Source: Nemertoderma westbladi
Lineage: Eukaryota; Animalia; Xenacoelomorpha
Direction of reading: 5' to 3'
DNA: 33,335 nt
Assembly: GCA_032718475.1 (NCBI GenBank)
Contig: JAUCBJ010002696.1
Location: forward strand, 1 to 33,335
Shown here: piece after piece, positions 685 to 33,133 of the stretch
Numbering within the stretch: the first letter of the stretch is position 1
Layout: each line of letters begins with the position of its first letter
The notes under the pieces: model-generated
What the model was told of the DNA's origin: nothing
Seen by the model: the letters and a program-made list of their open reading frames with translations, nothing else
Database searches by the model: none
Program-made: the position numbers and the translations under genes

Positions 685-1673
685 ACCTTTAGTCCCCGCG
701 GTCACTTAGTCGCATTATCGCGGGCACTAATGTCCCGCGAGATGTTAGTGCCCGCGAGACGTTAGTGCCCGCGAGACATTAGTGCCCGCGAGAAATTAGT
801 CCCCGCGAGACATTAGTGCCCGCGTCTAGCGACTTAGTTATTATATGTAATAAATACAACAGGCCAGAAAGATATTTCCCGCTTCTTTAGTTCCTGCCGA
901 TGATGCAAACGAGTCGTTACTTTCTTCAAACTTATAAGGTAATTTCCAGTCTTTAGTTCCCGCATCTCGTTATTTAACATTTTAATTTCAACTTGGGTCT
1001 TTTATGATTAAAAAATATATTAACCTCAGTTAGACATGGTATCAATTATATTATTTGGTTTTGCGGTAAAGTTTTCAAGGAATGAGGATTAAGCAACAGC
1101 GTTTGATTGTTTATAAGTAACTTACTTTTGATTGAGTATACTAATTTGTTGAACTTAACTGGAGACAGTGTGAATAAAAAAAACAAGGTGCAGTACTACA
1201 GTATAATCGTCGGAGGACGCACTAACCAATATATTTTAGTAATTAATTAATGCTCGACTGTCGACTGTCTGACATTTTGTCGACGAATTAAAAGTAAAGT
1301 AGCACTTTTAGTTAATTAAATTAGGGAATTAATTAAATTAGTGTATGTAAATGGACGACTTTGGTTGAATGGGTTATAAGTAAGAAGAAATACGGATTGC
1401 CTAATACTAACTTCAAATTCAGTGCGGGGTGCAGGGACTAATGACTCGCGGGGACTAACGTCTCACTTGCAGACAAGGTCCTCACGCACTAATGATTCGC
1501 GGGCACTAACGTCTCACTTGCAGACAAGGACCTCGGGAACTAATGACTCGCGGGCACTAACGTCTCACTTACAGACATGGTTCCCGGGCACTAATGACTC
1601 GCGGGCACTAAAGTCCTGAGACATTAGTGCCCGCGGGCACTAACGTCTCGCGGGCACTAACGTCCCCCAATCC
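685..1673. mobile_element. Foldback/MITE-like non-autonomous DNA element with inverted subterminal 17-bp repeat arrays
   Basis: The left arm (about 720-825) has tandem TTAGTGCCCGCGAGAC(A/G). The right arm (about 1430-1665) has the reverse complement, arranged as 51-bp (3x17) units, and ends ...ACGTCCCCCAATCC. The core is AT-rich and the left terminus looks lost. Superfamily not assignable. Confidence 0.7.
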
Positions 1674-4661: not shown

Positions 4662-5987
4662 TTATTTGGAATGTCCGTTTCGTTTTATCCATTTGGTACA
4701 GGAAAGATAAATCACAGATACCATCCCTGCACCGAACATGAGAAAACCACAGTTAGTTAGGGCCCATTCTGGCCCATACTGTTTGGATATCAATCCACTG
4801 ACCAGTGGGCCCAGACTGGCCCCTAACGCCCACAAACAGTTGTACATTCCAGACATCTTCCCGTATGTATCGTGGTTGTCGGGGAAACCCGCGGCAACAG
4901 CTCCCTCCAATAGGATTGCAAACTGCGGGACCATGGTCATACTCCAGAACACAGCCATGATGAGTGCTGAGCCGATAGACAGTACGATATGGTGTTCTAA
5001 CAAGAGGAAAGGAGCTGGCCCTATGGACATGTCCATCATGCCGGTACCGAATAGGCCGACTACAATTAGAATGTGTTTGTGTCCACGATCGGAGAGGAAT
5101 CCCCATATAGGAGCGCTTAATGCGAAGGCAACCGCGCTCCCTGTTAGTATACCACCGATTGCTATGGGGGCGAGTCCATAATTCATCGTAAAATACGGCT
5201 CGGCTAAGGGCAGAAGGTAATCGGAAGCAACGCTAATGCATAAAATAATCGAGAGGCCCCATAAAATGTGAATCTCCTTAAACAATCTCCATATAGAGCC
5301 GCCGGTTTCGACTATTTGTGTTTCTGGGTTTTGAAGTATACAAACTTGTATTATAAACAGGAATAACATTAGAGAACCGACTAGGTAGAATGGTAGTTGA
5401 AAGCCGCCTAATTCGTAAAGTCCAGCTCCCATTAGCGGCGCGAGAATCCCGGAAATACCGGATGTTAATTCCCAGAAACTGACGACTGTGGACAATCGAT
5501 CTGGGAAGTCACTCGCGATGATTGTGAAAGAGGCGGTGTGATAGGCGCTCGAGCCTAGACCTTCTAGTGTCCGCAGCACCATACATGACCAGAAGAAAGC
5601 AGTACCGTCGTGTATAAAGTGTAGGAAACCATACGAGATGGTGGAAACCGCGGCTAATATAACCCCGACTAGGTAGAGCGTTCGCACGCCCGTGTAAGCC
5701 AGTAGTACGCCGAATATAGGGCTCGTAATAAACTTTGTGATTTGGTATATCGCGAAAATTAATCCCACTTGGAACAGGTTGACACCCCGTTTGGCGGCTT
5801 CACCAGGGAAGAATGGAACCATAAGTACGTAACACGCTCCCGCAAAGAAGCTCAGTGTTAATAGACAAACGAGGTTGATGATTTGGTGTCGTGTGTATTT
5901 AATCTTTTCTGCCTTGTCAGGGATTATTTTATCTTTTTCGGAGTTTGGGGGAATTTCTTCCATTTTCGTATAACCAGGTAAAGACAT
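4662..5987 (-). CDS. SLC18B1: MFS-type transporter, SLC18B1-like (vesicular polyamine/amine transporter family), single coding exon, 441 aa
   Basis: Uninterrupted ATG-to-stop ORF with about 12 hydrophobic segments. Family-typical strings include PFFPGEAAKRG, LRTLEGLG, LYELGGFQLPF, APIWGFLSDR, GPAPFL and TYGKMSGM...LGASLGP. Confidence 0.9.
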   Translation of the reverse strand: MSLPGYTKMEEIPPNSEKDKIIPDKAEKIKYTRHQIINLVCLLTLSFFAGACYVLMVPFFPGEAAKRGVNLFQVGLIFAIYQITKFITSPIFGVLLAYTGVRTLYLVGVILAAVSTISYGFLHFIHDGTAFFWSCMVLRTLEGLGSSAYHTASFTIIASDFPDRLSTVVSFWELTSGISGILAPLMGAGLYELGGFQLPFYLVGSLMLFLFIIQVCILQNPETQIVETGGSIWRLFKEIHILWGLSIILCISVASDYLLPLAEPYFTMNYGLAPIAIGGILTGSAVAFALSAPIWGFLSDRGHKHILIVVGLFGTGMMDMSIGPAPFLLLEHHIVLSIGSALIMAVFWSMTMVPQFAILLEGAVAAGFPDNHDTYGKMSGMYNCLWALGASLGPLVSGLISKQYGPEWALTNCGFLMFGAGMVSVIYLSCTKWIKRNGHSK

Positions 5988-7654
5988 TGTTAAATAGGAT
6001 TTTAATTAGTTTTTGCTTTACAATTTATGATTGTAATTCATTTATAAACACGGAAATAACACATTCCCATTATATTGTATTGAATATACTGTCTAAAAGG
6101 ACAATAATGACTCCCTATATGAAATATGCTGCAGCCCCTAACTTGTTAATTATTTTATTTTATACATTAAAAACGTTTTCAACTCATTGTTAATAAATAA
6201 ATTAATTATGATTGTTAATAAATGTTGTTTGTTTAGTATATTAATATTTAATACAACAAAGTTAATTAAACTAATTATGATTTCATATTTGTATGTAATT
6301 ATAGAAATATTAATTAAATTTAATTTTAAACCGAAATTAATTATTCCAGCCCAAATGTACTATTATTTATAACAAATTTATATCCATAATAAAATTATTA
6401 GTGGTATTTAATCCTCTCTCTTGGGGGTGTTTTTATAATTTACAAATATTTTAGACTGCACATTATTAACCTTAAACAACAAAAATGATGCATCATGGTA
6501 TATAGACTTATTGTACTTATGTGCGTATTATACAATTCTTGTCTATTTATTGGTTTTTATGACTCGCTATTACGATTCAGTTGGAATAAGCATATTAGTC
6601 AATTATTGGGAATTTTGCCAGATGTTACTATAGGATATATTGATTATGTTTGGATGCCAAAAGATATAACAACGATAAGGGCACCCTTATATAACAGTTG
6701 GCCTTCTGTATATAAATTAATCTCTTGGAGTTCTAATCAATGACCATATACAGTATGTTATGTTCCATGAAGTACGAAATACTAAGGGGCGAGCCATGTT
6801 TGTTTGTAGCCTATACTATGTAGGCTGCTTTAGTTTTATAATAATATTAAAATATATTCATTTTCAATTTTCAAAGATTACGATATTCTAGTATGAATAT
6901 AACTTGAGGGGGGGGGGGGGGGGGGGGGGCTTCCTTCAAGATATGATAAAACCTCGTATATTGTTTTTGTTAGAATAATATGTCAGTATAACCTGCCCCT
7001 TTCCATTAATTGCTAAATAACATTGTTAATACGCCGGTTCGTAAAGCATAATTAATTCGTCAAGCAAGATGTAGGCCTAATGTAATATCGAATATGTCGA
7101 TTAGGCGCATGGGTGGATATGAATTCCATCTCGGCGATTTCATTTTTCCGTCTCAATTGTAAATTATCAATTAAAGGACAATGTGTAAGGGTACGTTACT
7201 CTAACCAAAACAATAAAATATGGTAATCAATAGGACACATCCGACCCAAAAACATTTCTTGGTTGCGCGGAAAAATTTGATTGTCGGACTGGCATCATTG
7301 GCTTACAACAGGGGCGACATTTTTAAAAAAAATGTATCAACTTTGAGGCATTTAGGCCTATGTAAATTAGTTCATATTTAAGGATCTGTAATACCACCTG
7401 GGTTGAAGTTCTCGGTCCATGACTTTGGTAAAATGTACATAGATATGTAGTGTAGGTCTTCTATGAAAATTTCTGCACAAAGGTATTGTTTTTAAAAAAT
7501 TTATGGGGGTTTTATTATGTTCGGGCTATATTTTTGGAATCAAATATTTTATGATAGACAAAGTGTAGCAGTTACAAAATCGGTTCCAGAAGATCCAAAT
7601 GGCCATGTTTTACAAAACCATTACTCATGATTGTAACCATAAAGCTGCTGTATG

Positions 7655-10793: not shown

Positions 10794-11233
10794 CTGCAAA
10801 ATAATACGATTTACATTTATTAATTAATACTAAAGTTCGGGTCAAGTCTACAGTACATACAGTATGAGAGAATTTAGAACTATTGTAATGTCTAGTAGAA
10901 ATGCTGCGATTTTTCTGTACGTCATACAAAAACGCCCGGCAAACAGGTAATCGTAACAATAGGTACCACTCCGTTGGTTTGGTTGCACTATCTGCCCACC
11001 TCTATCTTACTTAGCTAGATAAATTACAACCGCTCGCCTACAAAAAGCACATATAACTTACATACATACCGCACGTACTATACGCCCAGTTTCATTTAAA
11101 AGACACTACATTACATACAGTACTGATAAACCTCAACTTTATTATATATTTTTATAATGTGCTATTATGCATATATTATTTTTATATTGTGGTGCGAGCC
11201 CCATAATATAAAAATTTTATATTGTGTAATAAT

Positions 11234-12950
11234 TGACCCTTTGGAAACTTTCACCATGTGGAACCTTTGACCCTTTGGAAACTTTGACCCTGTGGAACCT
11301 TTGACCCTGTGGAACCTTTGACCCTGTGGAACCTTTGACCCTGTGGAACCTTTGACCCTGTGGAACCTTTGACCCTGTGGAACCTTTGACCCTGTGTTAC
11401 CTTTGACCCCGTGGAACCTTTGACCGTGAGTTACCTTTGACCCTGTGGAACCTTGGACCCTCTGGAACCTTTGATCCTGTAGAACCTTTGACCTATGGAA
11501 CATTTGGCCCTGTGGAACCTTTGACCCTGTGGTACCTTTGACCCTGTGGAACCTTTGACCCTCTGGTACCTTTGGCCCTGTGGAACCTTTGAACCTGTAG
11601 AACCTTTGACCCATGGAACATTTGACCCTGTGGAACCTTTGACCGTGTGTTACCTTTGACCCCGTGGAACCTTTGACCCTGAGTTACCTTTGGGCCTGTG
11701 GAACCTTTGACCCTGTAGAACCGTTGACCCATGGAACATTTGACCCCGTGGAACCTTTGACCCTGTGGTGCTTTTGACCCTGTGTTACCTTTGATCCCGT
11801 GAAACCTTTGACCCTGAGTTACTTTTGGCCCTGTGGAACCTTTGACCTATGGAACATTTGACCCTGTGGCACCTTTGACCCTGTGGTACCTTTGACCCTG
11901 TGGAACCTTTGACACTGTGGAACCTTTGACCGTGTGGAACCTTTGACCCTGTGGTACCTTTGACCCTGTGTTACCTTTGACCCCGTGGAACCTTTGACCG
12001 TGAGTTACCTTTGACCCTGTGGAACCTTGGACCCTCTGGAACCTTTGATCCTGTAGAACCTTTGACCTATGGAACATTTGGCCCTGTGGAACCTTTGACC
12101 CTGTGGTACCTTTGACCCTGTGGAACCTTTGACCCTCTGGAACCTTTGGCCCTGTGGAACCTTTGACCCTGTAGAACCTTTGACCCATGGAACATTTGAC
12201 CCTGTGGAACCTTTGACCGTGTGTTACCTTTGACCCCGTGGAACCTTTGACCCTGAGTTACCTTTGGGCCTGTGGAACCTTTGACCCTGTAGAACCGTTG
12301 ACCCATGGAACATTTGACCCTGTGGAACCTTAGACCCTGTGGTGCTTTTGACCCTGTGTTACCTTTGACCCCGTGAAACCCTTGACCCTGAATTACTTTT
12401 GGCCCTGTGGAACCTTTGACCTATGGAACATTTGACCCTGTGGCACCTTTGACCCTGTGGTACCTTTGACCCTGTGGAACCTTTGACACTGTGGAACCTT
12501 TGACCGTGTGGAACCTTTGACCCTGTGGTACCTTTGACCCTGTTGCACCTCTGACTCTGTAGAACATTTGACCCTGTGGAACCTTTGAACTGTGTTACCT
12601 TTGACCCCGTGGAACCTTTGACCCTGAGTAACCTTTAGCCCTGTGGAACCTTTGACCCATGGAACATTTGACCCTGTGTAACCTTTGACCCTGAGGAATA
12701 TTTGACCCTGTTGAACCTTTGACTCTGTAGAACATTTGACCCTGTGGAACCTTTGACCCTGTGTTACCTTTGACCCCGTGGAACCTTTGACCCTGAGTTA
12801 CCTTTGGCCCTGTGGAATCTTTGACCCTGTAGAACATTTGTCCCTGTGGAACCTTTGTCCCTTGACCCTGTGGAACCTTTGACCATGTGTTACCTTTCAC
12901 CCAGTGGAAACTTTTACCCCGTGGAAACTTTGACCCTGTGGAAAGTTTCC
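11234..12950. repeat. 17-bp satellite (consensus CCCTGTGGAACCTTTGA), about 100 monomers, with a 574-bp higher-order duplication
   Basis: The tandem array is directly visible. The diagnostic variant TGACCGTGAG recurs at 11421 and 11995, and the ORF-track duplicates are also offset by 574. Confidence 0.97.
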
Positions 12951-13080
12951 CAGGAAATAAGAAAATACCTGAGTGTTTAAAGCTCATCTATCCCATCATA
13001 GTAGACATGTACAGAACAACAAGAGTCCCACAAGAAATGAAAACAAATAAGTTGGTGCCAGTTCCCAAGAAGGGCAACCT

Positions 13081-13452
13081 TCTTGTTTTACACGTGGCAA
13101 TTTTTAGAGCAACTTTCTCGGCAACTAAAAACTTTTTTTGGAGCATCTGAATTTAATCGCTGTTTACACGTGGCAACTTTACCAGCAACTTGGCCTGCAA
13201 CTTTTAGGGCAACTTGGCTAGTTTGACTGTAAAATAGTGGGTCATTTTATCTACTAGCTAGTTTTTGATAATTTAATTTGATTATCCCGCTTTAATTCGC
13301 CAACGCAAATTCCTTCAAGTTGCCGTAAAAGTTGAGCAACTTTAATGGCAACATTTTTACGTGTTTACACGGAGCAACTTGATCGGCAACCTGGGTTGCT
13401 CTACAAGTTGCCGAGAAAGTTGCTCTAAAAGTTGCCACGTGTAAACAGACCT
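13081..13452. mobile_element. PIF/Harbinger-like MITE nested in RTE copy 2
   Basis: TIRs of about 40 bp (TTTACACGTGGCAA.TTTTAGAGCAACTTTCTCGGCAACT and its reverse complement). It is inserted at the TAA of the RTE sequence GGCAACC-TAA-CACTC. The right end ...GTAAACAGACCT|TAA is intact and the left tip and TSD are damaged. Confidence 0.8.
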
Positions 13453-14471
13453 TAACACTCTATGGTACTTTTCGGGGAATCCCATTAATCTCGATTGCTG
13501 CAAAGCTATACAATATAATTATATTAAATCGCATCAGGGATCCCATTGAGAGACTGCTCCGTGGAGATCAGAATGGGTTCCGTAAAGGTCGTGGGACCAT
13601 GGAGCCCATTTTGGCACTTAGAAGGATAATTGAAGAATTATCAAAAAAGAAAGACAGGAATCTGGCTGTTATCTTTGTTGACTGCTTCAAGGCCTTTGAT
13701 TCAGTCTCTCGCTCACGTATGTTCAGCATACTTTAATTATATGGGATTCCTGATGAAATTATTGCAGCAATCAGATCAGTATACGATGGTTCGACAACAT
13801 TTGTGTCTACTGTTGATGGTGACCCAGAACCATTTGAAGTATTATGGGGAGTCCTCCAAGGAGACACACTTGCGCCATTCTTGTTCACAATTGTGGTTGA
13901 CTATGTTCTACGCATAACCTTAGATCATCATAATGATGATGGTAACTCCACCTACTGGCTCCAGAAGTCGAGGAAATCCTGCCAAGTACGTAACTGATCT
14001 AGACTTTGCTGATGGAGTAGGAGTACTCTCAGAATCACAAGAGGGAGCCCAACGCCTCCTCAGCTTATTAGAACAGGCTGCTTCTAGTGTTGGTCTTTTT
14101 ATTCACCTCAAAAAGACCAACATTTTGACATTTAACTTTGAAAGTCCTCAGCAAGTCTCTGACCGGATGATCATAAGCTCAAAGGATGGTTTGTTTGAGC
14201 ATGTGGACGACTTCTGTTACCTGGGATCATGGATCCGGAAGTAAGGTGAGGACCTTCAAATACGTAAGGGAAAGACATGTGCAGCCTTAAATATGCTTTC
14301 CAGGATGTGGAAGTCACAAAAAATTAATCGTAAACTTAAGGTCCGATTATTTAGAACAGCAGTAGTTCCAGTACTCCTCTATGGGAGTCCATGCTGGGCT
14401 CTAACTGCTGAGGACACCCAATCTTTGGATGGCACATTCAAAAGAATGCTACGCCGGGTTCATTGTGTCAA

Positions 14472-14658
14472 TTATAAAGCTTCTTAGCTCAATGCTTCTA
14501 CCACACAACGCCAATCAGATGCAACAACCGGTATGGGAACTTCGAATTCAATAGCTGAAACACCACGGCCATCAGTTGCAGCACCGCGTCCAGCGCCCGC
14601 AACATCGCTCCCGTCAGCTATGACACCCTGCGCATCGGCTGAAGCAACACCCCCTGCA
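14472..14658 (+). other. ~187-bp foreign GC-rich, coding-like insert in RTE copy 2
   Basis: Splits the RTE sequence TGTCAA|GTACAATGC, which is contiguous in copy 3. It carries an open Pro/Ala/Ser/Thr-rich frame and has no TIR or TSD. Confidence 0.8.
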
Positions 14659-14993
14659 GTACAATGCACACATCTCCATATAACATTGGAGGTGTCTTAT
14701 TGGTTGCCCCAAGCCTGACTCTAGAACAAAGTCGCCTCCGCTTTGCAGGACATTGCTTTCGCCGTGAGGACCAGCCAGTGCATAATCTTGTGCTTTGGCA
14801 GCCTCATGGAGTGAATAAGCATGGTGGACAGCCCATGACTTTCTTGACACGCATCTTAAAGGACACTGGCCTTGAAGATGCGGATAATCTAGCAAATGTA
14901 ATGGGTGATAGGGAGTTGTGGCTTCGCAATTTTGTCGACAAACCAGCACAGCATTCTTAAAAATGCAGCATGCCGATCCTAGTAGTAGTAGTA

Positions 14994-15070
14994 GTGGAAA
15001 CTCTCACTCTTGGAAACTTTGATCCCGTGGAAACTTTGACCGTGTGGAACCTTTGACCCTGTGGAAAAGT
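14994..15070. repeat. Distal remnant of the 17-bp satellite beyond the RTE insertion
   Basis: About four degenerate monomers of the GTGGAA(A/C)CTTTGACC type immediately after the (TAG)n tail. Confidence 0.85.
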
Positions 15071-15267
15071 TTTTTTATCAAAATATCAATTATTATATAT
15101 ATATTTCAAAATATTGTATTATTTTATTATATTATAATTTACATTTACATAATTATTTTTTTACTTTAAAGTTAAACATTGTGTTGTGTAGTTGTGTAGA
15201 TATAGGCCTACAGTATATATGTAAAAAATACCATGCGGGGCGCGATTATCTTTCTGTTTTTTTTTAC

Positions 15268-15504
15268 CTGGATTTAATCCGGAATTCAGATATCCCAGCC
15301 ACAAGAATGTGAGAACCATCGGTTGACTAAAGTAACAGTCGCGACAAACAGCTTCAATAATATAGTTTATAAAAAATGGCATCCAACAAACCACGAAGCA
15401 CCCCATCACAATGGCCAGAGTTTTCGCTGCTTTTAATTCTTTATTTTTTGCTGAAAGTAACCTCTTTGCTGAACTTCCAATGCTCCTCATTCGAAGTGGT
15501 TTCA
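15268..15504 (-). CDS. Aminergic GPCR exon (end of ICL3, TM6, TM7)
   Basis: ELKAAKTLAIVMGCFVVCWMPFF...WLGYLNSGLNP. Acceptor ttttttag|TG and donor G|gtaaaa, both phase 1. Confidence 0.93.
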
Positions 15505-16119
15505 CTAAAAAATTAATGGGGTAATTTTATAGGATTGTTAGCTGTTTGATTGTACCAGAAAAGTAATGAACCAAAATTAATGTTATTTTGTAGGATTTGT
15601 GTTCAAAAAATAATTTCTTTGTTGAGTTTTACAAGAAATTAATGAGGGAATTTAGCAGGATTTGTGTTCAACGCATTATTTCTTTGTTATGAAACGAGTG
15701 ATGTCGAATTAATCCCTTATATTTATTAACATGACATGATGAATGCATTTTTCAATTTTAATAATCACTGCGCTTGTGTTATGTGTGGTATGATAAATTG
15801 TATCAAACAAGCAGCTCGTCCAATATTCTAATCAGATAAGCCTGGTATTAAGCCTGTCACATTACCAGGACCAGTCCATGTCCCAGCTGTCATGCATTTA
15901 CAGTTAACAACACCCAAGGCAAGCTTCTTTAAATCGACCAATCAGTAATTCGATTGTTAAAATAGATAGCAAGGTGTTTGCGGAGAAGAGCGTTTTTGAC
16001 CTCTATATTGGATAGGAACGTTTTATAATTACTGATTATGTTTGCTCTGGTGCTGATCGGATCGTGCTCTATAAGAGAGGTTAGCTAAAGGGCAAGGCTT
16101 CCAATTTAGTTCATGCCTC

Positions 16120-17682: not shown

Positions 17683-17860
17683 CTGAATGGAAATTTATTC
17701 GAAAATAAGAAGTGCTATGAAGAGCATAATAAAACATTAAATTATTTCTACAAAATTATAGCTACTGCTCGGATTAACTTTTAATTCAATATTGGTGACC
17801 TCACAACACCATCACAGTTCTCCATCACCAATAGGAGAATCGTTTAGGCTCGTTAAGTCA

Positions 17861-18745
17861 AGGAATGTCTGTTCACCACCATGGGTGATCTTGCACAATA
17901 AACATTTCCACTCTGTTTCCTAAAGGAATGCCTGTTCACCACCACGGGTATTCTTCCACAGTAAACCCCCCCAATCTGTTTCCTAATGGAATGCCTATTT
18001 ACCACCATTGGTGATTTCCACAGTAAACCCTTCCACTCTGTTTCGTAAAGGAATGCCTGTTCACCACCATGGGTGATCTTGCACAATAAACATTTCCACT
18101 CTGTTTCCTAAAGGAATGCCTATTTACCACCGTTGGTGATCTTCCACAGTAAACCCTTCCTCTCTGTTTCGTAAAGGAGTGCCTGTTCGCCACACCATGG
18201 GTGATCTTCCACAGTAAACCCTTCTACTCTGTTTCCTAAAGGAGTGCCTGTTCACCACCAACCACCATGGGTGATCATCCACAGTAAACCCTTCCACTCT
18301 GTTTCCTAAAGGAATTCATATTCACCGCCATGGGTGATCTTCCACAGGAAACCCTTCCACTCTGTTTCCTAAAGCAGTGCCTGTTCACCACCATGGGTGA
18401 TCTTCCACAGTAAACCCTTCCACTCTGTTTCCTAAAGGAATTCATATTCACCGCCATGGGTGATCTTCCACAGGAAACCCTTCCACTCTGTTTCCTAAAG
18501 CAGTGCCTGTTCACAACCATGGGTGATCTTCCTCAGTAAACCCCTACCGCTCTGTTTCCTAAAGCAGTGCCTGTTCACCACCATGGGTGATCTTCCACAG
18601 TAAACCCTTCCACTCTGTTTCCTAAAGGAATTCATGTTCACCACCATGGGTGATCTTCCACAGTAAACCCTTCCACTCTGTTTCCTAAAGGAATGCGTGT
18701 TCATCACCATGGGTGGTCTTCCAAAGGAAACAGTTCCACTCTGTA
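17861..18745. repeat. 63-bp minisatellite, about 14 copies
   Basis: Unit TCTTCCACAGTAAACCCTTCCACTCTGTTTCCTAAAGGAATGCCTGTTCACCACCATGGGTGA. The ORF track shows 21-aa periodicity, and alternating variants give a local 126-bp period. Confidence 0.96.
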
Positions 18746-18913
18746 TCCCAAGTTGCCTTAGATCCTATTTATCGACCATTTAAGGATGAAAGCCAGGGTT
18801 GAGCTAGGCTGCAGCATTTAAAGAACTGTGCTCAAACAGTGTTGCCCCATCTAGGTATCGAATCAGTGCTTCCAAATTGAAAGCCCGGAATGTCACCACT
18901 AGACCAATGTAAA
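18746..18913 (-). mobile_element. tRNA-derived SINE 5' region running directly into the 63-bp array
   Basis: Box A TGGTCTAGTGG (18906-18896) and box B-like GATTCGATACC (18864-18854). These are followed by CTCAACCCTGGCTTTCATCCTTAAATGGTCGATAAAT, which resembles a central block shared by many metazoan SINEs. Confidence 0.65.
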
Positions 18914-20705: not shown

Positions 20706-22281
20706 CCCTATTAAACCCGGGGGGGGGGGGGTCAATATGACCCCCCCGTGGTTTTTTTATTATCATTCTGAAACAAACGCAGTTGGGAATCTGAAATTTT
20801 ATGACTTTTCCTAAAAATCTATTGTCTTCCTAGTAGTGAAAACCGTTTTCAAAAATATTGGGTACTTTTTGAGTTATAGCACCATTTTTTAACCCTACTT
20901 TTGGCACTTTTTTTGAGACGTTTTTTGAAAATTACATTTCATTAAATAGGAATTGTAACATCTCTAATTTTGATTTACACCGGTTTTTTGGTGTTAGAAA
21001 TTTGATGGAATTCATATCAATTGATTTAGAAATTTCAAACTTGTATTTTTCGGCGGGTACCAAATTTTGGTGCCAGCACCAAATTTTGAAATAAGTCAAT
21101 TTTGTAAATTGAACGTTTGAAACTTGTATTTTACGCAATTGGGGTTTTTTGGGTTTCTGGATTCGATGAAATATATACGAGTTGCACCAAGCGTATCAAA
21201 CTTGTATTTTTCGGTGCTGTGTGCAAATTTTGGTGCTAGCACGAAATTTTGAAAATCCATTCAATAGATAAAATTGCTTGTGACAATTTATTTCTTGCGT
21301 TTTAGAGGTTTATGGCTGTTCTGAATTCAATGGAAAATATAATTATCGAACTAGACATCTCAAACTTGTATTTTTCGGATATGGGTGCAAAATGTGGTGC
21401 TAGCACCAAATTTTGAAAACCATTAAATATATCAATTGATTGTGTCACCTTGTTTCTTGCGTTATACGGGTTTGTGATGGTTCTGAATTCAATGGAATCA
21501 GTAAAAATTTCATAAGAGTTCTCAAACTTGTATTTTTCGCCGGCGGGTGAAAATTGTTGTGCCAGCACCAAATTTTGGAAAATATGCAAATTGATAAGTA
21601 GATAGTATCACCTTGTTTCTTGCGTTATACGGGTTTATGAGGGTCCTGAATCCGATGGAATCAATAAAAACAGCACTGGACATCGCAAACTTGTACTTTT
21701 TGGTGATGGGTACGAAATTTGGTGCTAGCACCAAAATTTGCCAAATTACACCGAAAAATACAAGTAGCAATGATCTGGCATATTAGAAATGTATTCCATT
21801 AGAATCAGCGCCCTCGAAAACCTGAAAATGTGAATTTATAGCATCGTATAAGTGAATTAAAAATTTTGTGTTCTAACTGAAAAGTGCTGGTTACTTGTTT
21901 TTTTCATTTTTTTCCTACGCAGAGAGGACTAAACAGCCATTTATAGTAATCATATCATTTTTTAATATTTTCCAATGTATTTTGCACCCCAGAAAACCTG
22001 TATTGAAAAATAATTAGCCGAAAATCTAACTTTCAAATTTGGTGAAAATTGTGCACTATTTGTAATTTTGGTGCTGCAATATAACCACCCCAGTACATTT
22101 TTTCGAAAATTTTTTTTTTCGGTCGGATCCAGACAAGTGACACCTACGTACAAACAAAAAATCAGACGTTTTCGTAAATATTTGTAGATTTTAGAGGAGG
22201 GGGGGGGGGGGGGGGGGGGGGGGGTCAATATGACCCCCTCCCGGTATTTGTACAACATTTTATAGCCCGGTACTAATAGGG
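20706..22281. mobile_element. piggyBac-like non-autonomous element with TTAA TSDs and internal ~162-bp tandem repeats
   Basis: TTAA at 20702-20705 and 22282-22285. Termini CCCTATTAAACCCGGG and CCCGGTACTAATAGGG match at 13/16 as inverted repeats. The near-palindrome GGGGTCAATATGACCCC occurs near both ends. No transposase ORF. Confidence 0.88.
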
Positions 22282-23825: not shown

Positions 23826-24142
23826 ACATTTCTTTCTTTGTTGTGGATATAGAATTTAGTTCATCTGTCACTGCGAAACTAACACATTTTCTCAATAAGT
23901 GTGGTTTCATAACATCACATATTCGCTTTCCTAAACTGCGTTCATGAATTTATTTGTAAACCAATTACAGCGAGAGTACGTTCGTGAGTGCGTTATTGTT
24001 GGGTGAATGTGTAATTGAAATTTTTTAGGTGGATTGAAACCATGAATAAATTATTACTTGGTCTTAATATATATATTTTATCCGCACCTGTCGCTCTGTG
24101 CACAATGAACCTACTGTAGCCGTGCACTACTGGTGATCTTAC

Positions 24143-24355
24143 CTGGGCAACGGCAAGAATAGCCGATAGAATCCAAACCAGTAGTATCATCATGATGCAG
24201 CGTTTTGTTGTCATTCTCTGAGTGTAGGAGAACGGCTGAGTAATTGCCCAAAATCGGTCCAAACTGATGAAGCAAAGATTTAGGATGCTGGCTGTGCAGC
24301 AGAGTATATCGGACGAGGTGAACAGCAAACAGAACCCACGGCCTAGTACCCAAAC
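24143..24355 (-). CDS. Aminergic GPCR exon (TM3, DRF motif, TM4)
   Basis: WVLGRGFC...SSDILCCTASILNLCFISLDRFWAITQPFSY, including the amine-binding Asp3.32. Boundaries ttacag|GTT and CAG|gtaaga, 213 nt. Confidence 0.95.
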
Positions 24356-25449
24356 CTGTAAAGGGGACATATTATTGCATTAATACATGCGATGCGACTA
24401 AATATGACTGCATGGTGACATGGGTAGTTCCATTATCTATATATGAATATGGTTGGATTGGACTGTGTTATTTCATCATCTTTCAATTCAGTCGAAATAT
24501 TGTACAAATAAATTGTACATTTAATGGTATTGGCTTTACAATATGAAACAGTAAGAGTCTACAATTATATAGTTAGTGTTTGTACATCTATCTGATTTGT
24601 CTTAGATCGCAATTACTTAAAGCAATGCGTAACAATTTGGCTCTAGCAATCAATTCGGGATATGGCACTAATGATACATTATTTTCGGCTTATTAAGCCA
24701 AGATGGCTGCAATTAAGAATGAAGTGTTTTTAAATATATCACAAATTATTATATACGGACTAGGTTGTATTTTCGTACAGCAAAGTCACTTTGAATGGAG
24801 TTCATCTAATTAGTTGACCTAAGCTTTTGGTAATGATTGAATACATTTACATGACAAAAAAAAACATAAATTGATTGATACCGCCCAGGCCCACCCACCC
24901 TCAACCCGTATTTAGTAGGCCTAATCCGAATGTTGACTATGTGGTTTATAAATAAGTAGTATTATTACTGGCCATCTGCATCTATGACCAGTTGACTTAC
25001 TGGGAGTTAAAACTTGGGATACGAGTAGTGCCCCGCCCTGATAACAATTTTGTTAATGAGATTTTTTTGTTTTTCACAGTCACATACATATAATATTTAT
25101 ATACAGTATATAAGGCTTGAGCAAAAACAAGGGAATTGGCCAGTATGTCAATAATACCTTTACATTCGCGGTGACATAAACATATAAACTGATAACGTAA
25201 AATAGGAACTATTTTACAATTTGAAAATTATTATTTTAGGTTGGGTGGGGGGAGGGGGGGGGGGGGGGGGGGTGGGCAAGTAGGGAGGAACCAAAACAAT
25301 AAATAAGAGTTTGGAATATAGATTAATACCAATTGTATCTTTATGGAGAAGCAACAACCATATGTAGCCTTCATCTCGAATAGGTTGCCGTTCGTCTAAA
25401 CAAAAATTGTAATATATCATAATGAAATTCATAGGGTGCATCCACTCAC

Positions 25450-25632
25450 CTGCATCAGCTGGTATGCTAGAGATATGGGCATAATAAATGATGCTACCAG
25501 TATGTCTGAAAATGCTAGAGATACTATAAAGTAATTGGTGCATGTGTGAAGTCGGTAATCTGTCTTCACTGCCAACACAACAAGAATATTACCCACGATG
25601 GACCACAATGTTAAAGGAGGCAACGTGATTAA
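25450..25632 (-). CDS. Aminergic GPCR exon (TM1-TM2); whole gene resembles invertebrate D1-like dopamine receptor Dop1R2/INDR
   Basis: SIVGNILVVLAV...LHTCTNYFIVSLAFSDILV. Boundaries ttctag|TTA and CAG|gtgagt, 183 nt. The subtype is judged from remembered motifs only, so an octopamine or adrenergic type is not excluded. Confidence 0.92.
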
Positions 25633-29655: not shown

Positions 29656-31280
29656 ACTACTACTACTACTAGGATCGGCATGCTGCATTGCAGCTGCATT
29701 TTTAAGAATGCTGTGCCGGCTTGTCAACAAAATTGTACCGCCACAACTCCCTATCACCCATGACATTTGCTAGATCATCCGCATCTTCAAGGCCAGTGTC
29801 CTTTAAGATGCGTCCTAAGAAAGTCATGGGCTGTCCACCATGCTTATTCACTCCATGAGGCTGCCAAAGTACAAGATTATGCACTGGCTGGTCCTCACGG
29901 CGAAAGCAATGTCCTGCAAAGCGGAGGCGATTTTGTTCTAGTGTCAAGCTTGGGGGAACCAATGAGACACCTCCAATGTTATATAGCGTTTGGTTGGAGA
30001 TGTGTGCATTGTACTTGACACCATGAACCCGGCGTAGCATTCTTGTGAATGTGCCATCCAGAGATTTGGTGTCCTCAGCAGTTAGAGCCCAGCATGGACT
30101 CCCGTAGAGGAGTACTGGAACTACTGCTGCTCTAAATAATCGGACCTTAAGTTTCCGATTAATTCTCGGTGACTTCCAAATCCTGGAAAGCCTATTCAAG
30201 GCTGCCCATGCCTTTCCCTTACGTATTCGAAGGTCCTCACCTGACTTCCGGATCCATGATCCCAGGTAACAGAAGTCGTCCACATGCTCAAGCATACCAT
30301 CCTTTGAGCTTATGCTCATCCGATCAGAGACTTGCTGAGGACTTTCAAAGTTAACTCTCAAAATTTTGGTCTTTCTGGAGTTAATAAAAAGACCAACACT
30401 AAAAGCAGCATGTTCTAATGAGCTGAGGAGCCGTTGGGCTCCCTCTAATGATTCTGAGAGTACTCCTAAGTCATCAGCAAAGTCTAGATCAGTTAGGTAC
30501 TTGGCAGGATTTCCTCGACTTCTGGAGCCAGTAGGTGGAGTTATCATCACCCCATCATCATTATGATGATCTAAGGACATGCGTAGAACATAGTCAACCA
30601 CAATAATGAACAAGAATGGTGCAAGTGTGTCGCCTTGGAGGACGCCCCATAACACTTCAAATGGTTCTGTGTCACCGTCAACAGTAGACACAAATGTTGT
30701 CGAACCATCATATACTGATCTGATTGCTGCAATAATTTCATCAGGAATCCCATATAATGAAAGTATGCTGAACATACGTGAGCGAGAGACTGAATCAAAG
30801 TCAACAAAGATAACAGCCAGATGCCTGTCTTTCTTTTTTGATAACTCTTCAATTATCCTTCTAAGTGCCAAAATGGGCTCCATGGTCCCACGACCTTTAC
30901 GGAACCCATTCTGATTTCCACGGAGCAGTCTCTCAATGGGATCCCTGATGCGATTTAATAGAATCCTATTGTATAGCTTTGCAGCAATCGAGTTCAATGA
31001 GATTCCCCGAAAAGAACCATAGAGTGTTAGGTTGCCCTTCTTGGGAACTGGCACCAACTTATTTGTTTTCATTTCTTGTGGGACTCTTGTTGTTCGGTAC
31101 ATGTCTACTATGATGGGATAGATGAGCTTTAAACACTCAGGTATTTTAAAGACCTCAGGGGGAACACCATCTACTCCACTGGCACGATTGGTCTTAATGC
31201 TCTTTGCAGCAGCCTTCACTTCTGCAAAGGAGATATCGCCAATGGGAATATCTGGGAATACAGACTCAGACACTTTTACT
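29656..31280 (-). mobile_element. RTE-clade LINE, copy 3 (longest, 5'-truncated before the RT, (TAG)n tail)
   Basis: An open RT frame, a very short 3' UTR and an (ACT)5 run at 29656-29670 on the plus strand. No APE endonuclease upstream, and an in-frame stop at 31330-31328. Confidence 0.95.
29702..31273 (-). pseudogene. RTE reverse transcriptase ORF remnant (523 codons open, GTG start, 12-bp in-frame deletion in a core motif)
   Basis: Contains PKKG, RGISL, QNGFR, GVLQGD.LAP.LF, DFADD, YLGS and RLRFAGHC. It reads VDFDS where copy 2 reads VDCFKAFDS. Confidence 0.9.
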
Positions 31281-31431
31281 TCTATAAAACTTCTGATACT
31301 ACTGATTCTACTTCTGATAAATGCTGGTTAAGTAAATTAATTAATTACTTTAATTACATATAGAAGTAATGTGAATGGTTTTGTTCTGAAGTATGGAAAA
31401 AATGAGAAAGCGCGCCACCGGGGGTTGAACC

Positions 31432-31477
31432 AGCGCTATACGTACGTTTCGGGCTAACAGGCCTCATTAGTAGCGCT
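31432..31477 (-). ncRNA. Hammerhead ribozyme copy 1, mutated core (CUAAUGA, G5A) plus stem II mismatch; predicted inactive
   Basis: AGCGCTA-CTAATGA-GGCCTGTTAGCCC-GAAA-CGTACG-TA-TAGCGCT, with substitutions at 31468 and 31453. Confidence 0.85.
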
Positions 31478-31738
31478 AACCAGCTCAGCCACTAGCCCCT
31501 GAACTTCTCACTCCCACATAATCCACTTCTATTGAACGGGCAGTCTTAAGTTGCATATATTCTATCTCTAACAGCGGACCTAACGGCCTCAAGTATGCTA
31601 GAGTGAAACAGGAGGGAAGTACAAATAAATAAATATTCAGCTCGGTATTGCTGCCAGGTGATATTAATTAAATAAATTGGAGATGAGCTGTTGCAACTGT
31701 AATTAAAGGTGTAATATTATGGGTTTGTTCAGAAGTGG

Positions 31739-31744
31739 AAAAAA
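31739..31744 (-). terminator. Pol III T6 terminator candidate (repeated every 340 bp)
   Basis: ...CGCGCTCCCA-TTTTTT, 16 nt after box B. Confidence 0.6.
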
Positions 31745-31760
31745 TGGGAGCGCGTCACCG

Positions 31761-31831
31761 GGGGTTGAACCAGCGCTATACGTACGTTTCGGCCTAACAG
31801 GCCTCATCAGTAGCGCTAACCAGCTCAGCCA
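31761..31831 (-). promoter_or_regulatory. tRNA-type Pol III internal promoter flanking the hammerhead (repeated every 340 bp)
   Basis: Box A TGGCTGAGCTGG (31831-31820) and box B GGTTCAACCCC (31771-31761). Confidence 0.7.
31772..31817 (-). ncRNA. Minimal type I hammerhead ribozyme, copy 2
   Basis: Stem I AGCGCUA/UAGCGCU, core CUGAUGA, stem II GGCC-UGUUA-GGCC, GAAA, palindromic stem III ACGUACGU and a GUA triplet. Predicted cut between 31779 and 31778. Confidence 0.92.
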
Positions 31832-32111
31832 CTAGCCCCTGACACTCACAGTCCCACCTAATCCACTTCTATTGAACGGGCAGTCTTAAGTTGCATATAT
31901 TCTATCTCTAACAGCGGACCTAACGGCCTCAAGTATGCTAGAGTGAAACAGGAGGGAAGTACAAATAAATAAATATTCAGCTCGGTATTGCTGCCAGGTG
32001 ATATTAATTAAATAAATTGGAGATGAGCTGTTGCAACTGTAATTAAAGGTGTAATATTATGGGTTTGTTCAGAAGTGGAAAAAATGGGAGCGCGTCACCG
32101 GGGGTTGAACC

Positions 32112-32157
32112 AGCGCTATACGTACGTTTCGGCCTAACAGGCCTCATCAGTAGCGCT
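32112..32157 (-). ncRNA. Minimal type I hammerhead ribozyme, copy 3
   Basis: Identical to 31772-31817. Confidence 0.92.
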
Positions 32158-32451
32158 AACCAGCTCAGCCACTAGCCCCTGACACTCACAGTCCCACCTA
32201 ATCCACTTCTATTGAACGGGCAGTCTTAAGTTGCATATATTCTATCTCTAACAGCGGACCTAACGGCCTCAAGTATGCTAGAGTGAAACAGGAGGGAAGT
32301 ACAAATAAATAAATATTCAGCTCGGTATTGCTGCCAGGTGATATTAATTAAATAAATTGGAGATGAGCTGTTGCAACTGTAATTAAAGGTGTAATATTAT
32401 GGGTTTGTTCAGAAGTGGAAAAAATGGGAGCGCGTCACCGGGGGTTGAACC

Positions 32452-32497
32452 AGCGCTATACGTACGTTTCGGCCTAACAGGCCTCATCAGTAGCGCT
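32452..32497 (-). ncRNA. Minimal type I hammerhead ribozyme, copy 4
   Basis: Identical to 31772-31817. Confidence 0.92.
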
Positions 32498-32791
32498 AAC
32501 CAGCTCAGCCACTAGCCCCTGACACTCACAGTCCCACCTAATCCACTTCTATTGAACGGGCAGTCTTAAGTTGCATATATTCTATCTCTAACAGCGGACC
32601 TAACGGCCTCAAGTATGCTAGAGTGAAACAGGAGGGAAGTACAAATAAATAAATATTCAGCTCGGTATTGCTGCCAGGTGATATTAATTAAATAAATTGG
32701 AGATGAGCTGTTGCAACTGTAATTAAAGGTGTAATATTATGGGTTTGTTCAGAAGTGGAAAAAATGGGAGCGCGTCACCGGGGGTTGAACC

Positions 32792-32837
32792 AGCGCTATA
32801 CGTACGTTTCGGCCTAACAGGCCTCATCAGTAGCGCT
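32792..32837 (-). ncRNA. Minimal type I hammerhead ribozyme, copy 5
   Basis: Identical to 31772-31817. Confidence 0.92.
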
Positions 32838-33020
32838 AACCAGCTCAGCCACTAGCCCCTGACACTCACAGTCCCACCTAATCCACTTCTATTGAACGGG
32901 CAGTCTTAAGTTGCATATATTCTATCTCTAACAGCGGACCTAACGGCCTCAAGTATGCTAGAGTGAAACAGGAGGGAAGTACAAATAAATAAATATTCAG
33001 CTCGGTATTGCTGCCAGGTG

Positions 33021-33133
33021 ATATTAATTAAATAAATTGGAGATGAGCTGTTGCAACTGTAATTAAAGGTGTAATATTATGGGTTTGTTCAACAGCAGCT
33101 CAACAGCTCATCTCCAATTTATTTAATTAATAT
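33021..33133. repeat. 33-bp inverted copy at the array boundary
   Basis: ATATTAATTAAATAAATTGGAGATGAGCTGTTG (33021-33053) is the exact reverse complement of 33101-33133. Confidence 0.9.

Follow-up and report, generated by a model that had tools for sequence, protein, structure and literature searches.

A type I hammerhead ribozyme nested between tRNA-like box A and box B in a 340-bp tandem array of Nemertoderma westbladi: a possible Pol III-driven retrozyme

The window, by which we mean the whole stretch of 33,335 nt analysed (Nemertoderma westbladi, GCA_032718475.1, contig JAUCBJ010002696.1), contains a tandem array of hammerhead ribozyme motifs among protein-coding and repetitive sequences (Table 1). 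With its GPCR exons split by introns, its LINE fragments and its satellites, it has the look of invertebrate genomic DNA. About 5.7 kb downstream of the array, and in its sense, is the TM1-2 exon of an intron-split rhodopsin-family GPCR, which by reading appears aminergic-like. A 5'-truncated LINE, RTE-like by reading, begins about 40 nt past the array 3' end, and LINE-related pieces elsewhere in the window represent two more copies, one of them inverted. The remaining protein-coding feature is an intronless MFS transporter frame, for which a protein search returned a single homolog at E below 1e-40 (33% identical).

Table 1. Features of the window (copies of the 340-bp unit are numbered in the direction of the minus strand)
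Feature	Position	Strand	Remark
Tandem array, putative non-LTR retrozyme type	31366..33091	-	about 5 copies of 340-bp unit
Copy 1, box A-hammerhead-box B-T6	32759..32860	-	identical to copy 4
Copy 2, box A-hammerhead-box B-T6	32419..32520	-	identical to copy 4
Copy 3, box A-hammerhead-box B-T6	32079..32180	-	identical to copy 4
Box A, copy 4	31831-31820	-	tRNA positions 8-19
Type I hammerhead, copy 4	31817-31772	-	46 nt, canonical
Box B, copy 4	31771-31761	-	tRNA positions 52-62
T6, copy 4	31744-31739	-	candidate Pol III terminator
Copy 5	31395..31500	-	boxes and T6 intact, hammerhead damaged
Long imperfect rod extending helix I	31727..31877	-	folding prediction
A/C-rich stretch just outside rod	31707..31728	-	array end (31366-31375 equivalent) and ends of other copies
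Degenerate partial second copy of hammerhead 5' half	31915..31940, each unit	-	score reached by 2 of 2000 shuffles
Inverted copy, 33 nt, of unit sequence 33021-33053	33101..33133	+	at array 5' end
LINE, 5'-truncated	29656-31327	-	541-aa open RT frame (RVT_1), TAG microsatellite tail
LINE-related pieces	1-672; 12962-14995
GPCR exons (7tm_1)	about 25450-25620; 23993-24379; 15161-15526	-	array sense
MFS transporter frame	4662-6005	-	447 aa
Near-identical partial duplicate of MFS 3' end	about 1678-2651
Tandem array, period 17	11233-12943		about 101 copies
Tandem array, period 63	17860-18748
Tandem array, period 163	21196-21740
Tandem arrays, 17 bp and 51 bp	734-824; 1437-1664		mutually inverted

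The motif considered in most detail below is copy 4 of a head-to-tail array with a 340-bp unit, 5.0 copies and 98% matches over 31375-33091, an array that the original prediction does not mention. The units are free of mismatches from 33091 down to about 31520, the final ~150 nt belonging to a diverged, damaged family member, and this perfect identity could stem from assembly polishing or from unequal crossing-over. Copy 5 carries a core change at 31468 and a helix II mismatch at 31453, at which most family members have the intact letters. Animal non-LTR retrozymes are recognized in DNA by two or more tandem units in succession that have a full type I hammerhead folding below -5 kcal/mol, the units being non-coding, 150-450 bp long and under 50% GC (PMC7229834 and 10.64898/2026.07.22.740005). 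The array has four consecutive intact units out of five, a hammerhead motif folding at -15.7 kcal/mol over its 46 nt, a 340-bp unit, GC of 0.43-0.44 (31-33 kb) and no ORF of 100 aa. It therefore qualifies, at the DNA level, as an animal non-LTR retrozyme. As in the described animal elements, the units stand head to tail with one canonical type I hammerhead each, and there are few of them at the locus (same sources). The degenerate hammerhead half sits about 122 nt upstream of the intact ribozyme; the unit may descend from an old dimer.

Box A, a type I hammerhead, box B and T6 follow one another on the minus strand at 31840-31739, which confirms the layout given in the original prediction. The hammerhead comprises a 7-bp helix I, CUGAUGA, a helix II of 4-5 bp, GAAA, and a 2-bp helix III with a GUAC loop. 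Metazoan type I hammerheads are described as having a helix I of about 6 bp, a 4-bp helix II, a short helix III and a palindromic loop (PMC4209133); judged by its letters against that description, the 46-nt motif is a canonical member. An Rfam search of the whole window gave no family at gathering score, and a search of 141 nt matched RF00163 (Hammerhead_1) to 31773-31816 with 23.3 bits and E 8.4e-4, the gathering score being 34. Cleavage is predicted, from the motif, after GUA at 31779/31778. This site falls between the boxes and 34 nt before T6, in keeping with the earlier proposal that the cut parts box A from box B, and the predicted pieces of 60-62 and about 38 nt agree with the ~60 and 38 nt then suggested.

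For the promoter boxes we used a strict consensus, TRGCNNARYNGG for box A and GGTTCRANNCC for box B. Pairs of strict boxes 35-110 nt apart occur five times in the 33 kb, every one of them inside the 340-bp array; in copy 4 the spacing is 60 nt from start to start. When the 50 nt on each side of the ribozyme were dinucleotide-shuffled 20,000 times, the strict box A arose 186 times and the strict box B 69 times, a joint chance of about 3e-5; with a relaxed consensus the counts rose to 2284 and 493 (joint 3e-3). Since runs of at least five T appeared in 8522 of the 20,000 shuffles, T6 by itself is not beyond chance. It is the sole run of at least four T in the minus strand of the unit, and it begins 6 nt past tRNA position 73, so that the tRNA-gene geometry is complete. 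The spacer from T6 to the next ribozyme region, 238 nt with 77 T, has no T4; this was equalled by 361 of 5000 shuffles and 17 of 136 genomic windows (P about 0.07-0.13) and is suggestive.

Both halves flanking the ribozyme are tRNA-like, their best score against 31 E. coli tRNAs being reached by none of 1000 shuffles, although this test overlaps that of the boxes and the two are not independent. The best match is Ile-GAU (20 of 25 identical, 5' half). The strands of helix I correspond to the former D-stem 3' strand (about positions 21-27) and to about positions 45-51. Comparison with the 31 E. coli and 98 viral tRNAs did not fix the parent isotype; Ala was considered and not supported. A working tRNA, discounted in the original prediction, is likewise not indicated here: ARAGORN reported none at its default or at a 90% threshold with introns, RF00005 gave no match at E 10, and folding predicted no cloverleaf (D-arm and T-arm pair probabilities 0.00). 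ARAGORN calls at thresholds of 80% and below were rejected as inconsistent folds on both strands. The accompanying statement that the acceptor stem does not pair holds for the strict stem, but for the 100-nt RNA folding predicts a closing helix of 5 bp in a shifted register (P 0.6-0.99). The tRNA-derived head with boxes A and B is a feature of tRNA-derived, LINE-mobilised SINEs. The SINE monomer pattern (start at the head, A-rich or simple-repeat tail, target-site duplication) was not found, the array being permuted and tandem, with no tail and with no target-site duplication detected at it in the window.

The position of the ribozyme invites the idea that a tRNA gene became a ribozyme in place, the anticodon loop turning into the CUGAUGA core and the D- and T-stem strands into helix I, with the gene's own Pol III promoter driving a self-circularising retroelement that rebuilds this promoter only through the circle. 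We regard this as very doubtful. One family variant has four additional nucleotides at 31808 (one contig with 31% of the depth in run X5, and one low-depth contig each in runs X1 and X3), which leaves exactly six nucleotides between tRNA positions 25 and 32 and places CUGAUGA in anticodon-loop register; the insertion may be a slippage product. The anticodon loop of E. coli Ile-GAU reads CUGAUAA. The pattern CUGANGA retrieves 98 tRNAs, 91 of them Phe-GAA; with a mean of 35.8 and a best score of 50.0, against 54.5 for Ile, the Phe tRNAs have no advantage over others in fitting the flanking halves. Recombination of an existing hammerhead at a 7-nt match explains the register equally well. Under the preferred reading given below, the family would possibly record the origin of a hammerhead in the anticodon loop of a tRNA.

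The family was surveyed in four public DNA runs from three samples, one of which may be the source of the window. Over a 211-nt stretch, 1207, 1820, 929 and 74 family contigs were obtained; contig depth is not copy number, and because 74 to 1820 contigs occur in runs from three samples we regard the family as abundant. A variant at 31878 that reached 48% in one survey is missing from the 211-nt variant list, so the ends of the surveyed stretch are unreliable. Substitutions at 4% or more in any of the four runs gave 29 variant rows, 18 of them within 31739-31840. None of these 18 falls on the 14 fixed box letters or the six T of T6 (hypergeometric P 0.013), and the same test on the seven commonest variants, hand-picked, gave P 0.21; sequence conservation of the boxes among family members is thus suggestive only. 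Loops II and III take up common changes, as do the G-U wobble of pair 10.1-11.1 and the purine position of box A. In the core, two changes attain 4%, both in X5 alone (1-2 contigs), and the test for sparing of the core is weak (P 0.44-0.70). A minor variant has a box A lacking GG, seen in at least nine loose-end contigs of X3 (agreement 0.6) and in one joint contig each of X3 and X5. Among the matches listed, loose-end consensuses of other subfamilies keep a run of T6-T7 while the letters before it are changed. On the conservation of box A, box B and T6 asked for by the original prediction, then, the bulk of the family appears to keep all three, but the GG-less box A and the low power of the test qualify the answer.

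Folding shifts attention from the 100-nt RNA to the whole unit. The 102-nt region folds no better than its shuffles (z -0.31), whereas the 161 nt at 31722-31882, bounds that were picked after the unit fold had been viewed, fold as one rod (z -3.5, 0 of 200 shuffles). In a scan of ten registers of the unit (minus strand) only that of the rod had z near -3, the other nine ranging from -0.6 to +1.3. A helix between box A (31827-31822) and box B, formed across a GGUU bulge, is predicted as a distal extension of helix I (P 0.75 in both rod and circle folds). The outer arms join 31852-31877 to 31727-31749, so that in a unit-length RNA T6 is predicted to lie inside the rod, and the 31852-31877 arm is upstream of any likely Pol III start. 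Pairing of the upstream flank with the downstream segment is strong (-34.0 versus -18.1 +/- 3.4 kcal/mol, 0 of 2000 shuffles); the part of the rod beyond T6 is not significant alone (291 of 2000 shuffles), the stability of the whole unit is ordinary (z -1.0; when circular, matched by 29 of 150 shuffles), as is that of the copy 5 equivalent (z +0.4; flank pairing 764 of 2000). Of the 29 variants, compared with the predicted rod, 12 are unpaired, nine keep a pair and eight break one. The pair-breaking variant at 31845 is common (27-29% in X1 and X3) and the other breakers are rarer. A G-to-A change at 31824, considered as a strengthener of the helix between the boxes, lowered its P from 0.75 to 0.66 and is compatible only.

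Because the predicted rod requires an RNA that continues from one unit into its neighbour, a unit-length RNA is the likelier selected form; and as the rod needs flanking sequence and the end of the array lies about 30 nt beyond T6, such an RNA is also likely the mobile form, rather than the 100-nt RNA. The original prediction had made its main story an RNA of about 100 nt, self-contained and made by Pol III from its own promoter, cut by way of a dimer into the two pieces mentioned above. The complete tRNA-gene geometry fits such an RNA, for which helices I and II and the 5-bp closing helix are all predicted. A dimer is allowed by the 8-nt palindrome and folds stably through helix III, and the loop III variant at 31783 leaves it possible by G-U pairs; here that proposal stands, but a dimer may be needless, given that monomer clones with a 2-bp helix III self-cleaved (PMC7229834). 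As an account of the locus, however, we find the 100-nt RNA distinctly improbable and do not support it as the main story: it leaves the 340-bp unit in tandem, the 161-nt rod and the ends beyond T6 unexplained, and its own fold is no better than that of shuffles. A 100-nt RNA may well exist as a by-product.

Since the box letters also pair in the rod, structure alone could conserve them. This is the basis of a second explanation, in which the boxes of the retrozyme are left over from a captured tRNA and kept solely as distal helix I, the RNA arising from Pol II or other host read-through. The predicted helix between the boxes suits it, as does the GG-less box A, which by eye pairs better with box B. 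Retrozymes seem to be promoterless and to depend on read-through according to a review (PMC7761336), and T6 would not stop Pol II; host read-through is a real alternative here because the array is in sense with the downstream GPCR gene. Nonetheless both boxes fit the strict consensus even where the rod gives a letter weak pairing or none (G18, G19, A58), they and T6 are retained in the damaged copy 5, and the T-rich spacer has no T4, a suggestive point. We judge this explanation unlikely, though deserving serious weight.

The ends of the family members bear on a third possibility. Other copies end at 31707 (at least six contigs) and 31709 (at least five contigs) against unlike, AT-rich flanks (run X1), the same register as that in which the array itself ends, A/C-rich and about 30 nt past T6, before AT-rich DNA. 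Together with the inverted 5' end these shared 3' ends look, at the level of sequence, like retrotransposition. Inverted 5' segments are typical of Penelope-like elements. It is improbable, in our view, that the array is a Penelope-like pLTR fragment or a dead SINE-like head which recombination has amplified as a satellite and whose RNA has lost its mobility. Li et al. 2026 trace retrozymes back to pLTRs, suggest that they multiply locally and observed cleavage for just one of nine tested elements (10.64898/2026.07.22.740005), and identical units are consistent with recent unequal crossing-over; on the other side stand the resemblance to retrotransposition and, by the weak test given above, the sparing of the catalytic core by common variants.

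Our preferred reading, to which we give about an even chance, is that the motif is one unit of a five-copy hammerhead array on a tRNA-like scaffold, a likely non-LTR retrozyme that Pol III would transcribe with the two boxes as promoter, that would be cut between them, and that would spread as a re-ligated circular RNA probably copied by a Penelope-type reverse transcriptase. TFIIIC would bind the boxes and Pol III would start near 31840. Most transcripts would end at T6, the 100-nt RNA and its 60- and 38-nt pieces being by-products, while some would read through T6, the spacer and the next ribozyme. Two cuts would then free a 340-nt monomer with box B first and box A last, which RtcB would close into a circle. 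The weak step is the read-through, as T6 should be a strong stop; a single such event suffices because the spacer has no T4. T5 terminators of human Pol III showed no read-through in vitro and some in cells (PMC3141230), and a Cassandra transcript runs from a start in one 5S-like copy to an end in the one after it (PMC10886601). RtcB joined retrozyme monomers with 5'-OH and cyclic-phosphate ends into circles in vitro, and the invertebrate type has a tetraloop on a 2-bp helix III; coral and mussel monomer clones of this type self-cleaved (PMC7229834).

In the same reading a Penelope-type enzyme would nick AT-rich DNA, begin in the A/C-rich stretch near 31710 and copy the circle in rolling fashion; if given a cut, linear monomer, the enzyme would drop off after about 70 nt, short of box A. 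As the cut splits the promoter and copying of the linear monomer would stop before box A, a complete promoter would be had only via a re-joined or uncut site. One Penelope enzyme is reported to nick AT-rich DNA and to take an A/C-rich stem loop within its RNA as starting point (PMC11167929). By analogy, the stretch at 31707-31728 is a candidate start of reverse transcription, and the shared 3' ends near 31707-31709 would match both the target and the internal start. No Penelope element was found within the window. This family lends itself to a direct test of how animal retrozymes are transcribed, having within 100 nt a single terminator, a single cut site and two boxes that can be altered by point mutation. 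Should the model be right, the splitting of the promoter by the cut would make propagation depend on RNA re-ligation, which would give circles and tandem arrays an inherent reason, and one set of bases would act both as promoter in the DNA and as helix in the RNA. On its letters, the interest of the locus lies more in a retroelement than in a gene for a small RNA, with the ribozyme apparently at the anticodon-arm position of a tRNA-derived promoter. It would also be the natural counterpart of an engineered design. Cotten and Birnstiel reportedly built in 1989 a tRNA-ribozyme cassette with a hammerhead between boxes A and B, driven by Pol III; such cassettes have the same nested order, but are synthetic and trans-acting and not natural mobile elements.

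Among natural systems the closest are the schistosome Sm-alpha and Sj-alpha repeats, of about 335 bp, which, as the original prediction correctly stated for Sm-alpha, combine a Pol III promoter with a type I hammerhead; their multimers are cut to unit length and tandem copies are needed for propagation (PMC6765202, PMC2770079). In Sm-alpha the promoter precedes the ribozyme, and cutting leaves it intact at the monomer's 3' end (PMC6765202), whereas here the cut falls between the boxes, whose strands form helix I, and T6 follows shortly after it. Animal non-LTR retrozymes are apparently promoterless according to the review (PMC7761336); in the present array the ribozyme has a tRNA-derived box A, box B and T6 around it. 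Hammerheads of Penelope-like elements and their pLTRs share the type I fold, short palindromic helix III, tandem copies, AT-rich targets and A/C-rich 3' end (PMC4209133, PMC11167929), but the present array has no RT/GIY-YIG ORF, a canonical and not minimal ribozyme, and no partner element in the window. The TRIMs Cassandra, Helenus and Ajax likewise have an internal Pol III promoter in a repeated unit, with transcription running from copy to copy in Cassandra, yet are LTR elements with PBS/PPT and no ribozyme (PMC10886601).

In agreement with the earlier remark that no natural nested case was known, we found none in the literature, with most subscription papers and Repbase outside coverage; the available portions of PMC4918200, PMC8490949 and PMC6155905 hold nothing on this layout, and the words "tRNA", "Pol III" and "box" are absent from the main text of Li, Clavereau and Pollet 2026 (10.64898/2026.07.22.740005). 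Some families among the published retrozyme sequences of Cervera and de la Pena 2020 may hide it. A search for the core followed by box B gave 107 metagenome loci, two of which (L025, L045) form both type I hammerhead helices, neither with a box A, and three viral loci, none with a box A by inspection; these collections hold little animal DNA, and the blank therefore says little. Seven metagenome loci (L002, L008, L014, L024, L043, L082, L089) have hammerhead cores, apparently of type III, followed by a T-loop-like GGTTCRA, which was part of the search pattern and may reflect selection.

Two further observations on the family may be mentioned. None of the runs with family contigs is on record as RNA. 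In X4, whose nature as RNA is only a guess, one contig of 371 nt at 32433-32802 (three changes and one gap, depth 5.5) equals one unit plus 30, a length to be expected of a closed loop of 31-letter words but given by a DNA array as well. In X3 and X5, one contig per run joins back 46 nt at 31774-31819 with 19 letters between, implying two hammerhead cores 65 nt apart.
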